From assembly GCA_046757025.1 (NCBI GenBank), contig JBHHXN010000001.1, positions 59,185 to 123,184 of the forward strand: a DNA stretch of 64,000 nucleotides. The letters run 5' to 3'. Source of the stretch: a bacterium. Its GTDB lineage: Bacteria > Zhuqueibacterota > Zhuqueibacteria > Oceanimicrobiales > Oceanimicrobiaceae. A program made the position numbers. Every line of letters starts with the position of its first letter. Positions within the stretch are counted from its first letter, which is position 1. Positions 51,685 to 54,600 of the stretch are shown piece by piece.

Positions 51685-54600
51685 TTTCACGCCCTGGCCA
51701 GAAAAAATTATGGCTGTTCGCATTTTATCGTCGGGCGCGATCACGCCGGCGTGGGCAGCTATTACGGCACCTATGACGCCCAGAAAATTTTCGATGAATT
51801 TACTCCGGAAGAAATTGGCCTGACGCCGCTCTTCTTTGACCACACGTTTTATTGTAAAAAATGTGGGGGCATTGTTTCGGACAAAACCTGTCCGCACGAT
51901 CAGGCGGATCGCATCATTTTGAGCGGAACCCAGGTGCGTGAAATGCTCAGTCGCGGCGAAGCTCCGCCGCCTGAATTCACCCGCCCGGAAGTGGCCAGCA
52001 TTCTGATCGAAGGTTATCGCCAACAGCAATCGTCTGCAGAAGGTAAGATAAAAAAAGGTACAGGCTCGCCTGCTGCGGTGTCGGCCGCCAAATCGACTAC
52101 CGTCGCCGTATCTCAGAATGGACGAAGAAAGGTGTTTGTCATCGGACTCGATTGCGCCACGCCCGAGCTGCTTTTTGACCAGTACAAATCCGAGCTGCCG
52201 AATTTTCGAAAATTGATGGAGCGGGGCTTTTACGGCGAGCTTGAGAGCTCGACGCCTCCGACTACGGTACCGGCCTGGGCTTCCATGCTGAGCAGCAAAG
52301 ATCCCGGACAACTGGGATTTTACGATTTTCGCAATCGGGCGGATTATTCCTATGAAAACATGAATCTGGCTTCTTCAATATCCATCAAGACCGACCGGGT
52401 TTGGGACATTCTTTCCCGTGCAGGCAAAGAAGTCGCCGTAGTGGGCGTGCCGCAAACCTTTCCGGTGCAACCGGTGAACGGCAATTTGATTTCTTGTTTT
52501 TTGACGCCCTCCACCGAAAGTCAATATACCTACCCACAGGAGCTGAAGAAAGAGATCGAGGAGTTGGTTGGCGAATATTTGATCGATGTGCCGAATTTCC
52601 GTACGGAAAATAAAGACTGGCTCCTGCGACAAATCTATGAAATGACCGAAAAGCGCTTTCGCGTGGTGCGTTATCTCATGCGCAACAAACCTTGGGATTT
52701 CTTCATGTTTGTGGAGATGGGCACCGATCGTATTCATCACGGTTTCTGGAAATATATCGATCCGGCGCACCCGAAATACGAGCCGGGCAATCCTTATGAA
52801 AACTCGGTCAAAGACTACTACAAATATCTGGACCGGGAAATCGGCGAGCTGCTCAGTTTGCTGGATGAGAATACCGCGGTATTAGTGATTTCGGATCACG
52901 GCGCCAAAAAAATCGACGGCGGCATCTGCATCAATGAATGGCTCATGGAGAACGGTTATTTAAAATTGCAGGAGAAACCCAACTCGCTCATGCCGTTAGA
53001 GAAGGCGGAAATCGACTGGACTGCCACCAAAGCCTGGGGTGCAGGCGGTTATTTCGGCAGAGTGTTTTTGAATGTCAAAGGGCGTGAGTCGCAAGGAATC
53101 ATCGAACCGGCTGAATATGAATCGGTGCGGGATGAGCTGATCGAAAAGCTGGAAAACCTGACCGATGATAAAGGCGACAGAATTAAGACAAAAGTGATCA
53201 AGCCGGACAAAGTTTATCGGGAAGTCAACAATATTCCGCCGGACCTGATCATCTATTTCGGCGATTTGAATTGGCGTGCGGTGGGCAGCATCGGTTTGAA
53301 TCAGATTTACTCATTTGGAGACGAGCTTGGACCGGACGACGCCAACCATTCGCAACATGGCATCTTTATGATGTACGATCCAAAAAATCCAAGCGGTGGT
53401 CGCAAAATCGACGGCATGAAACTGGTAGATGTGGCGCCCACTATCTTAGACTTAATGGGTGAAAACGTCCCCGGCGATATGATTGGAAATATTATCCCGA
53501 AAAAGTGAGGTGTTTGGGGTTTGAAGAGGAAACGTGCTGCGTACTCCAGTAGTGCGCAGCACGTTATTTCTTAATTGTGAAACAAATCAGGAATCGCATC
53601 GATTAGCGGATCTTCTGTGGATGGCGCTAAAACGAAAAACCTTATTTGTGTAACAAAATTTATTTTGAAAACAGTGTAATTATCGATTAAAACCAATGGA
53701 GGTTTCATCTTTATGGGAGCTACGAAGAAAGCTTGCACGATCTGGTTTACGGGATTACCCTCGTCGGGTAAATCCACTCTGGCTGAAATGTTGGAAAAGG
53801 AATTAAAAAAACTCGGTGAAAATGTCGAAATTCTGGACGGGGATGTGGTGCGAACCAACCTGAGTAAAGGCTTGACTTTTAGCAAAGAAGATCGCGATAT
53901 CAATATCCGCCGAATTGGCTTTGTCTGTCATTTGCTGACGCGCAACGGCGTGTTTGCCATTTCTGCGGCCATTTCGCCTTACCGCAGCGTTCGAGATGAA
54001 AACCGAGCGCTCATCGGCGATTTTGTGGAAGTGTTTGTGAATTGTCCCCTGGAAGAGTGCATCCGTCGCGACGTGAAAGGGCTGTACAAAAAAGCGCTGG
54101 CCGGGGAAATCAAAGAATTTACCGGCGTTTCGGATCCTTATGAAGAACCGCTCAATCCCGAAGTGGAAATCGATTCCTTAAATGAAGAGCCGCGAGAAAG
54201 TCTCAATAAAATTCTCCAGAAACTGGTGGAGCTGGGGTATCTCACCCAAAATGGTGTGGACGCTTCGGAAAAGGCTTACACCAACGATGAAGAAGAATTG
54301 GTGAAAAAACGACTGAGCGATTTGGGCTACATTTAATGTTCCATTTTCTCAAGCGCGACAAAGGCGCGCGTGTATTTGTTCTATCCATCGACGGCGTGCC
54401 CTTTTCGTTTATGAAAGAAAATATCGCGAAAGGGCATTTCCCCAATTTCAAACGATTTTTAGAACAAGGTGATTTTAAACGAATGAACTCAGTGCAGCCA
54501 GTGATTTCATCGGTTGCCTGGTCCTCGTTTATGACCGGCAAGAATCCGGCTAAGCACAACATTTTTGGATTCGTCGATCAGAAGCCGGGCTCGCATGAGG

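Follow-up and report, generated by a model that had tools for sequence, protein, structure and literature searches.

What does a short C-terminal tail do on an adenosine 5'-phosphosulfate (APS) kinase, and why do several unrelated proteins encoded around that kinase end in the same way? The question is raised by the cysC gene at 53713..54336 in a stretch of 64,000 nucleotides (hereafter, the window) from a bacterium of the phylum Zhuqueibacterota (assembly GCA_046757025.1, contig JBHHXN010000001.1, positions 59,185 to 123,184 of the forward strand). The window is one long polysaccharide locus on the plus strand, to which all window coordinates given below refer. APS kinase itself is textbook biochemistry; its tail in this locus is a conserved helix that recurs on unrelated folds and goes together with one subtype of PF01663 enzymes, the B-type, whose gene begins where cysC ends. 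We are fairly confident that the extension has a function, that it is a context-dependent module, and that it is linked to PF01663 enzymes. As to how it works, our preferred reading is that the tail is a portable docking helix, held on a flexible linker and acting by binding the B-type enzyme; we would put the probability of this at roughly one half.

The identity of the kinase leaves little to argue about. The open reading frame (ORF) begins with an ATG at 53713, preceded by a Shine-Dalgarno sequence that can be read directly (GGAGG, 53698..53702, 10 nt 5' of the start), and encodes 207 aa before a TAA stop at 54334-54336. The protein matches PF01583 with 206.6 bits over residues 7-154 (cut-off 21.1), NCBIfam NF002059 with 269.4 bits (cut-off 244) and TIGR00455 with 221.9 (cut-off 138.7), and its best match among solved structures is Synechocystis 5cb6 (E = 9e-66). 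The P-loop GLPSSGKST (53752..53778, residues 14-22), already pointed out in the preliminary description together with the C-terminal extension, is confirmed, and the motifs DGD, NxxR, ISPY, KGLYKKA and FTG.SDPYE are present as well. Residues G14, G19, K20, T22, D42, G43, D44, R47, R61, N64, R67, S88, P89, Y90, K122, G123, Y125, K127 and D141-E144 are invariant in an alignment of 66 sequences and all occur in the window protein. Thus, every testable family feature is there, and by sequence the ORF is an APS kinase with an intact catalytic core, for which the reaction APS + ATP -> PAPS + ADP (PAPS, 3'-phosphoadenosine 5'-phosphosulfate) is predicted. A bifunctional PAPS synthase (Sat-CysC fusion) is ruled out, because ATP sulfurylase (Sat) and CysC are not on one polypeptide: the upstream Sat::PF01663 fusion ends at 53508, and cysC starts at 53713 with a ribosome-binding site of its own.

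It had been proposed that the tail motif occurs twice in CysC. Both motifs are indeed there, LGYL at residues 174-177 (54232-54243) and LGYI at residues 204-207 (54322-54333), the latter at the very C-terminus; the first, however, is the native end of the kinase and not a copy of an acquired tag. The native last helix with its LGYL spans 54190..54243 (residues 160-177), and this is where solved APS kinases stop: 5cb6, 2gks, 3cr8, 8a8h and 7yq0, from five organisms, align up to residue 177-178 and end 0-8 residues later, with termini such as '...KIWQKLVDLKYI' and '...LLKLEHEGYLR'. In an AlphaFold2 model built from 66 homologues, whose core is confident, residues 160-173 form a helix with a predicted local distance difference test score (pLDDT) of about 95. 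Untailed CysC proteins from species-representative genomes end in helix-[LM]GY[ILVMF] in 32 of 67 cases, and in Gly-aromatic-hydrophobic in 48 of 67. Since the solved structures end there and the untailed enzymes share the motif, the first LGYL belongs to the original end of the kinase fold, as its ancestral last helix and cap, and, judged by this comparison, residues 178-207 alone are an addition. The native end and the tail do have a common pattern, [IV]xx[KR]LxxLGY[IL]. The idea of a recent internal duplication nevertheless has to be abandoned, since the native end is ancestral and, at the DNA level, the two resemble each other no further than their shared residues require.

The addition itself falls into two parts. 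The linker (54244..54276, residues 178-188) is not conserved in sequence and is modelled with low confidence, pLDDT being below 50 at residues 182-189; the two GY motifs are 21 to 33 residues apart, depending on the CysC homologue. The tail helix (54277..54333, residues 189-207) is modelled as helical at residues 191-203 with a pLDDT of about 73 and follows the consensus Y-[ST]-x-EEE-x-[VI]-x-x-R-L-x-x-L-G-Y-hydrophobic-COOH. In a logo made from 127 unique CysC tails, where the Gly of LGY is position 0, the frequencies are 0.91 for Y at -16, 0.91 for S/T at -15, 0.74-0.91 for E at -13 to -11, 0.94 for V/I at -8, 0.94 for R at -5, 1.0 for L at -4, 0.98 for L at -1, and 1.0 for both G at 0 and Y at +1, while +2 is a hydrophobic residue after which the protein ends in 119/127 sequences. 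By the general rules of helix capping, we would read such a sequence as a self-capping amphipathic helix. A hydrophobic staple and an S/T-x-x-E capping box (Y-T in the window protein) would close its N-terminus; the acidic first turns and basic last turns would match the helix dipole; V/L/L would form a hydrophobic face; and the Gly would cap the C-terminus, with the Tyr and the hydrophobic residue (Ile here) folding back as a hook. Tails on proteins other than CysC are looser: the Y-[ST] pair is weak in them (0.25 and 0.38), and 36/53 have 1-2 extra residues past the hydrophobic one that follows the Tyr.

Several known C-terminal signals were considered as a model for the tail and rejected. 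The invariant Gly before the Tyr and the variable 0-2 extra residues at the end do not agree with the HbYX motif of proteasome activators, and no proteasome genes were present among the window ORFs scanned. The same two features speak against PDZ ligands, sliding-clamp motifs and tails of the kind found on single-stranded DNA-binding proteins.

CysC is not the only bearer of the tail. Seven of the 43 window genes end in L..LGY[IL] followed by 0-1 residue, where 0.0005 would be expected, and the long window ORFs contain only one other LGY[ILVM], which is internal, in the GH39 gene. Besides the P-loop kinase, the tailed set consists of three membrane-anchored proteins of the sulfatase fold (PF00884) at 35332..37200 (end ...AAEERLRALGYIK), 37451..39592 (end ...EIEERLRSLGYLK) and 39739..41472 (end ...ATIEKLKSLGYIR); a DUF2061 protein of 99 aa with two transmembrane segments at 44302..44601 (PF09834, E = 7e-15; end ...LLEERLKELGYL); a protein of 63 aa at 48864..49055 (end ...EEEVKKRLQGLGYLS), which we call ribbon-helix-helix (RHH)-like by eye and without a Pfam match; and a PF01663 protein of 580 aa with N-terminal transmembrane segments at 55705..57447 (end ...KEIEKKLKSLGYIN). 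Thus, one tail is found on five unrelated scaffolds. Codons are shared at only 50 of 134 positions with identical residues among the seven tails, which indicates selection on the protein and not a DNA repeat. A DNA repeat or RNA element was rejected on these grounds and also because the sequences downstream of the tails are unrelated. As the same C-terminal helix is found on the same protein families in other phyla, a tailed DUF2061 subfamily outside the window among them, the earlier suggestion of a transferable module is borne out.

The genes that accompany tailed CysC are those of PF01663 proteins. Five subtypes, each with its own hidden Markov model, can be distinguished in these loci: the A-type, associated with or fused to Sat (in the window, the C-terminal half of 50872-53508); the B-type, about 450 aa long and directly 3' of cysC (54336-55682); the C-type, tailed and about 540-580 aa long (55705-57447); the D-type, hairpin-anchored (44680-46860); and the E-type, apparently exported (46787-48832). 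In a set of 87 non-redundant, species-representative cysC loci, an A- or B-type gene lies within 10 kb of 19/20 tailed cysC genes versus 3/67 untailed ones (Fisher p = 4e-15, a value that overstates independence, given the phylogenetic relatedness of the loci). All three untailed exceptions are accompanied by the A-type alone; B-type genes in this set stand only beside tailed cysC.

The search was also run in the opposite direction, with B-type proteins alone as queries on metagenome contigs, yielding 80 loci at 38-71% identity, 65 of them informative. Directly upstream of B, 48/65 have an ORF that ends in the tail, its stop lying 23-272 nt (745 nt in one case) before the conserved DG motif of B. 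Of the 33 loci with a recognised CysC next to B, 31 have the tail on it, 30 by pattern and one (L156) with the end HLEALGYL. More telling are the loci in which the carrier is something other than an ordinary kinase. CysC-like carriers of about 150-160 aa with altered P-loops (GAGRS, GNGKS) precede B in L094-L096, and in L094 residues 84-149 of the window CysC have no counterpart by tblastn. In L142, a P-loop vestige is joined to the last helix and the tail, upstream of B. In L163/L164 and L147, ORFs of 56-61 aa stand upstream of B, and tblastn matches them to CysC residues 189-207 only. Tailed A-type PF01663 proteins take the upstream position in L097, L138 and L154, and the order in L091 is an untailed CysC, a tailed DUF2061 protein, and then B. 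Given such a variety of carriers, what goes with B is the tail and not kinase activity.

The distribution of the tail points to the same linkage. The preliminary description took the tail to be specific to this locus, which does not hold: 91 of the 120 best CysC homologues (65-100% identity) have the extension, the sources named among these 120 include KSB1, Zixibacteria, Acidobacteria, Calditrichaeota and others, and tailed CysC occurs in at least six named phyla, plus KSB1. In 80 species-representative loci, the tailed lineages include Zixibacteriota, Acidobacteriota (Blastocatellia, Acidipila), Chloroflexota (Anaerolineales, Roseiflexaceae), Krumholzibacteriia, Armatimonadota and metagenome-assembled genomes labelled Clostridia. 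Nor is the extension uniform among CysC relatives; its presence depends on genomic context. Three loci syntenic with the window (L006-L008) carry untailed CysC proteins at 70-80% identity that end in unrelated low-complexity sequence. Their genes are arranged as heparinase-like, PF01663, 62-aa protein, 275-aa membrane protein, methyltransferase, Sat, CysC, glycosyltransferases of families GT4 and GT2, and onward; Sat is unfused, these loci have no A-, B- or C-type PF01663 genes, and no PF01663 gene of any type stands 3' of cysC. The tail is kept on the 62-aa protein in all three and on a sulfatase-fold protein in L007. A shortened remnant of the tail is visible in L171, where cysC ends '...SSEEELATERLV*' directly 5' of a GT4 gene, and further remnants occur in P0018, P0019 and P0036. 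The syntenic untailed loci and the remnants together indicate that the tail was lost along with the neighbouring PF01663 genes. In a neighbour-joining tree of CysC cores, tailed and untailed sequences interleave, though a tree of about 180 aa and without support values is too weak for counting gains and losses, and we consult it only in combination with the remnants. Overall, tailed CysC is a specialised type that travels with PF01663 genes and whose close relatives lost the tail, rather than, as first thought, a housekeeping enzyme that acquired a tag.

The B-type enzyme of the window (54336..55682; 448 aa, cytoplasmic, untailed; PF01663, E = 2e-47) starts within the cysC stop, the two genes overlapping as TAATG. 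Its AlphaFold2 model has a pLDDT of 95.2, and the solved folds nearest to it are those of phosphonoacetate hydrolase PhnA and of nucleotide pyrophosphatases/phosphodiesterases (NPPs; Xanthomonas NPP and ENPP1/5/6), with TM-scores of 0.55-0.63 and 13-19% identity. Residues D19, S58, D209, H213, D259, H260 and H400 are invariant or nearly so, and we read them as a putatively intact two-metal site with a Ser nucleophile. The family comprises at least 4,432 sequence clusters and is annotated only generically ('alkaline phosphatase family protein'). A full-text search of the literature available to us found nothing on the tail, on the function of DUF2061, or on PF01663 with CysC. The coupling of the B-type family to CysC and Sat offers a first functional handle: very probably, APS, PAPS or products of these are what B-type enzymes act on. 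The tail is absent from all of the 120 best B-type homologues, which fits B as its receptor rather than its client.

A separate observation concerns the N-terminus of B (54336-54380 in the window; also in L091-L170), a conserved basic amphipathic peptide, M-G/S-[FL]-[FL]-x-[RK]-[LF]-[RK]..., with 1-10 Lys/Arg versus 0-3 Asp/Glu, a net charge of typically +3 to +7, and its first eight residues disordered in the AlphaFold2 model. Pairing with the acidic tail helix is one possible role for it, and membrane binding as a helix another. We set it aside as a discriminating partner of the tail, since it is present with or without a tail upstream, and keep it as a lead only.

How, then, might the module work? 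In the mechanism that we favour, the tail helix would bind non-covalently to the B-type enzyme or its complex, so that the kinase making PAPS from APS would be held beside an enzyme with a nucleotide-type active site. Such tethering might allow APS or PAPS to be handed over or a nucleotide product to be removed. The data show how the tail is built and how well it is kept, that selection acts on it as protein, that it recurs on unrelated folds, and that it is tightly coupled to B-type PF01663 genes in both position and phyletic range; what we infer here is the physical binding, the surface that it uses, and the action of PF01663 enzymes on APS or PAPS. Adjacent, translationally coupled genes would favour co-translational assembly, and the plausible, best-supported partner of the tail is the untagged B-type enzyme directly downstream, rather than the tagged set to which PAPS synthesis had been proposed to be tied. 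The other tailed proteins (C-type PF01663, sulfatase-fold transferases, DUF2061 and RHH-like proteins) may likewise be clients of one common hub. In KSB1 and Blastocatellia, the tailed C-type proteins are soluble, with neither signal peptide nor transmembrane segment; it follows that the tail functions in the cytoplasm in these cases, just as it has to on CysC. The non-covalent coupling of CysC would stand alongside a covalent one encoded just upstream, the ATP sulfurylase::A-type PF01663 fusion (50872..53508; 878 aa; PUA_2, PF14306, and ATP-sulfurylase, PF01747, joined to PF01663). In KSB1 (L001), Sat and the A-type protein are encoded by two neighbouring genes; Chloroflexota (L020, L021, L045) and L172 again have them fused. 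Such a fusion is a Rosetta-stone link between sulfate activation and a phosphodiesterase-like family. The A-type domain might pull the Sat reaction by hydrolysing pyrophosphate, or might act on APS.

Several points, apart from the relatedness of the loci mentioned above, weigh against this docking mechanism. No tailed gene precedes B in 17/65 informative loci; thus, B needs no adjacent tail. The tail-only mini-ORFs are hard to explain as recruitment of a kinase and would make better sense if the peptide were a subunit, an activator or a substrate of B. In L006-L008, where D- and E-type genes are present but A-, B- and C-type ones are not, RHH-like and sulfatase-fold proteins still have their tails, so that B cannot serve as the sole receptor. 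For the tailed sulfatase-fold proteins and the 580-aa C-type protein, hydropathy and positive-inside counts give an ambiguous topology, and if the catalytic domains of the sulfatase-fold proteins are periplasmic, their tails cannot meet a cytoplasmic partner. Finally, 'RL..LGY' is also helix 1 of the PG_binding_1 (PF01471) and UBA domains, whose pattern hydrophobic-x-x-[RK]-L-[KR]-x-L-G-[YF] is the same; the motif alone is a generic helix cap. When a profile made from the seven window tails was searched against 1.84 billion representatives, 17 matches passed, the top ones being mostly PG_binding_1 and UBA repeats, with RHH-like small proteins recovered too, and 'RL+xLGY' being a generic helix-1 motif makes that search useless for mapping the range of families that bear the tail. 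A three-helix domain of the PG_binding_1/UBA kind cannot form here, because the tail stops 1-2 residues after the Tyr; there is no Pfam match over it.

The tail-only ORFs are also what makes one think of the tail as a substrate of B, or its covalent acceptor, with the Tyr of LGY or the Y-[ST] pair sulfated or adenylylated from the APS/PAPS of the attached kinase. The linker, disordered in the model, would then be a swinging arm, and the mini-ORFs would be carrier or precursor peptides; their position, like that of the degenerate kinases, directly upstream of B recalls a precursor peptide beside its modifying enzyme. The Tyr of LGY is invariant, and the second Tyr and the Ser/Thr, each conserved at 0.91, lie beside an acidic run. 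B has, as far as its residues tell, the nucleophile and metal site of an NPP, and NPP enzymes form covalent intermediates with nucleotide substrates. Moreover, no canonical sulfotransferase domain (PF00685, PF13469 or similar) is found among the 42 window ORFs scanned against Pfam (CarB, 12523-15747, and the ORF 31357-33090 lay outside the scan), though Sat and CysC are present. Nevertheless, we find this scenario doubtful. Helix capping, by the N-cap with its hydrophobic staple and by the C-cap, fully explains both Y-[ST]-x-x-E and L-G-Y-hydrophobic; tails not on CysC have a weak Y-[ST] pair; ordinary Sulfotransfer_1 genes occur in KSB1 loci that have the same module; and we know of no protein-Tyr sulfotransferase or AMP-transferase in the alkaline phosphatase superfamily.

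Equally unlikely, in our opinion, is that the tails bind one another, forming homo- or hetero-oligomeric helix bundles without a separate receptor. The hydrophobic V/L/L/Y face and the complementary E-rich and K/R-rich halves of the helix would suit such a bundle, and tailed proteins are often encoded together: seven of them in the window, CysC and two C-type proteins in Blastocatellia. The tail also sits on RHH-like proteins, and C-terminal oligomerisation helices are known on RHH proteins, the repressor Mnt with its tetramerisation helix being an example. Yet CysC is the sole tailed protein within 10 kb in L010, L020, L021 and L045, where A- or B-type genes are nevertheless adjacent; the positional rule, a tail directly upstream of an untailed B, is not predicted by mutual binding; and a helix of about 13-17 residues is short for a stable bundle.

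A more elaborate variant of the acceptor scenario strikes us as rather improbable. In this relay of sulfo- or nucleotidyl groups, B would modify the tail Tyr (to Tyr-O-sulfate or Tyr-AMP), the tailed sulfatase-fold and PF01663 proteins, whose nucleophiles are Thr/Ser with no formylglycine motif, would use their own tails as aryl-sulfate donors to the polysaccharide, and tail-only ORFs would supply free carrier peptides. If true, it would be a route of sulfation without a canonical PAPS sulfotransferase. We give a similarly low chance to a regulatory role, in which the tail would be a signal common to the tagged enzymes and the RHH-like protein (a C-terminal degron, for instance, or the site of a dedicated protease or adaptor) and would let the cell switch them off together. 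The tail is at the extreme C-terminus, has a hydrophobic end exposed on a flexible linker, and is common to enzymes and a putative regulator in one locus; against this, no protease or adaptor gene co-occurs in the loci examined, the conservation extends over 19 residues including the helix caps, far beyond what known bacterial C-terminal degrons need, and the tight adjacency to B-type genes is left unexplained. That the extension is neutral, a chance or decaying duplication of the native CysC helix, can be dismissed almost entirely: the two ends share their pattern and are identical at 8/12 positions in some homologues (e.g., P0069), but the tail, with each position conserved at 0.9-1.0 in at least six phyla next to a drifting linker, is lost together with neighbouring PF01663 genes, is retained where the kinase degenerates, and recurs on unrelated proteins.

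The remaining genes of the window complete the picture. The locus encodes GT2 and GT4 glycosyltransferases, two flippases, Wzy, CarA/CarB with carbamoyltransferases, a GH39 protein, a heparinase II/III-like protein, Sat and CysC, and, beside the latter two, eight genes of the alkaline phosphatase superfamily. The three PF00884 proteins (35332-41472) have N-termini with several transmembrane segments and, read by eye, lack the C/S-x-P-x-R formylglycine motif; at the C-x-P-x-R site there is T-W-P-S-L in sulf1 (PF00884) and T-S-P-S-H in sulf3. By sequence, these 'sulfatases' appear not to be sulfatases at all but transferases of the LtaS/EptA kind with a Thr nucleophile. Within 11490-18055, carbamoyl-phosphate synthase genes, the small subunit recognised by Pfam and the large one by size and position, are accompanied by a carbamoyltransferase (16229-18055, by Pfam) and an SxtJ-like protein, and the ORF 31357-33090 is carbamoyltransferase-like by eye. 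This suggests that the polysaccharide is carbamoylated as well as sulfated. No recognisable sulfotransferase among the ORFs scanned and eight alkaline phosphatase-superfamily genes would together be compatible with a non-canonical sulfation of a heparin-like, carbamoylated exopolysaccharide. The ORF 26308-28212 (634 aa) has no Pfam match.

The D-type PF01663 protein (44680..46860; 726 aa, untailed), whose gene directly follows that of the DUF2061 protein, begins with a hairpin, YIGPGAG..., followed by a basic stretch, and is probably cytoplasmic. The E-type protein (46787-48832) appears to be exported. It has a lipoprotein-like signal (...LLVGTWSC) if translation begins at an internal Met; the listed start, a TTG at 46787, gives a 74-nt overlap with the preceding gene and probably lies too far upstream. 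Its Zixibacteria orthologue (L009 15559-17541) has a twin-arginine signal (MKRRDFIK...).

The 63-aa RHH-like gene could have been taken for the frameshifted C-terminus of the PF01663 gene at 46787-48832. We rejected this, as it has its own ribosome-binding site (AAGGAGA), an ATG at 48864, and free-standing orthologues; tailed ones occur in L006-L009, L013, L014, L025 and L029, and library matches are P0131-P0136. It is followed by a gene for a 280-aa membrane protein (49104-49946; no Pfam match), and this pair is kept in L006-L009 and L171. A second class of tailed RHH-like proteins, 72-77 aa long ('KVTIKIPR.LY...'), is found near clusters of A-type, CysC and B-type genes in L013, L022, L046, L099, L109 and L149. 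The tailed RHH-like proteins may be tail-bearing regulators of these operons.

It is instructive to compare the tailed kinase with systems that are already known. The closest is the short-form CysC (PF01583, NF002059/PRK00889; Synechocystis 5cb6, Aquifex Sat/APS kinase 2gks), to which residues 5-177 of the window protein align end to end, the native last helix and its G-Y-hydrophobic end included. The 30 extra C-terminal residues, in contrast, are present in none of the solved APS kinases matched, and the window cysC lies in a polysaccharide locus, its stop overlapping a PF01663 start, not in an assimilation operon. As a side remark, an ORF in L124 (4121-4444) ending '...MMQKLRSLGYM' is presumably the C-terminal part of CysD (sulfate adenylyltransferase subunit 2), and E. 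coli CysD ends '...MELKKRQGYF'. If our assignment is right, this would be a second sulfate-activation enzyme natively ending in a basic helix and G-Y-hydrophobic, which may be a coincidence.

In its architecture, the tail resembles the encapsulation peptides of bacterial microcompartments (BMC), the cargo-loading peptides of encapsulins, and the docking domains of polyketide synthases (PKS) and nonribosomal peptide synthetases (NRPS), which are likewise terminal amphipathic helices after a poorly conserved linker. As with those tags, one tail is carried by otherwise unrelated proteins, here seven window genes of five fold types, and, as in PKS docking pairs, the gene of the proposed partner comes right after the stretch that encodes the C-terminal element. 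The tail is set apart from these systems in that no PF00936, PF03319, encapsulin or PKS domains occur among the 42 window ORFs scanned, and, to our knowledge, its consensus differs from those of the BMC, encapsulin and PKS docking systems. The candidate receptor is also of another kind, an NPP/PhnA-like PF01663 enzyme. If the tail is a docking helix, it would be a compact tag, portable and about 19 residues long, that has been reused on at least five folds and in many phyla, of interest both for understanding and for engineering the co-localisation of enzymes.

Finally, PAPS synthase (Sat-CysC) and the Sat-PF01663 fusion show the same logic, in which steps around the unfavourable ATP sulfurylase reaction are physically coupled. 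Unlike in these fusions, CysC in the window is a separate polypeptide, and its coupling would be non-covalent, through a detachable helix.

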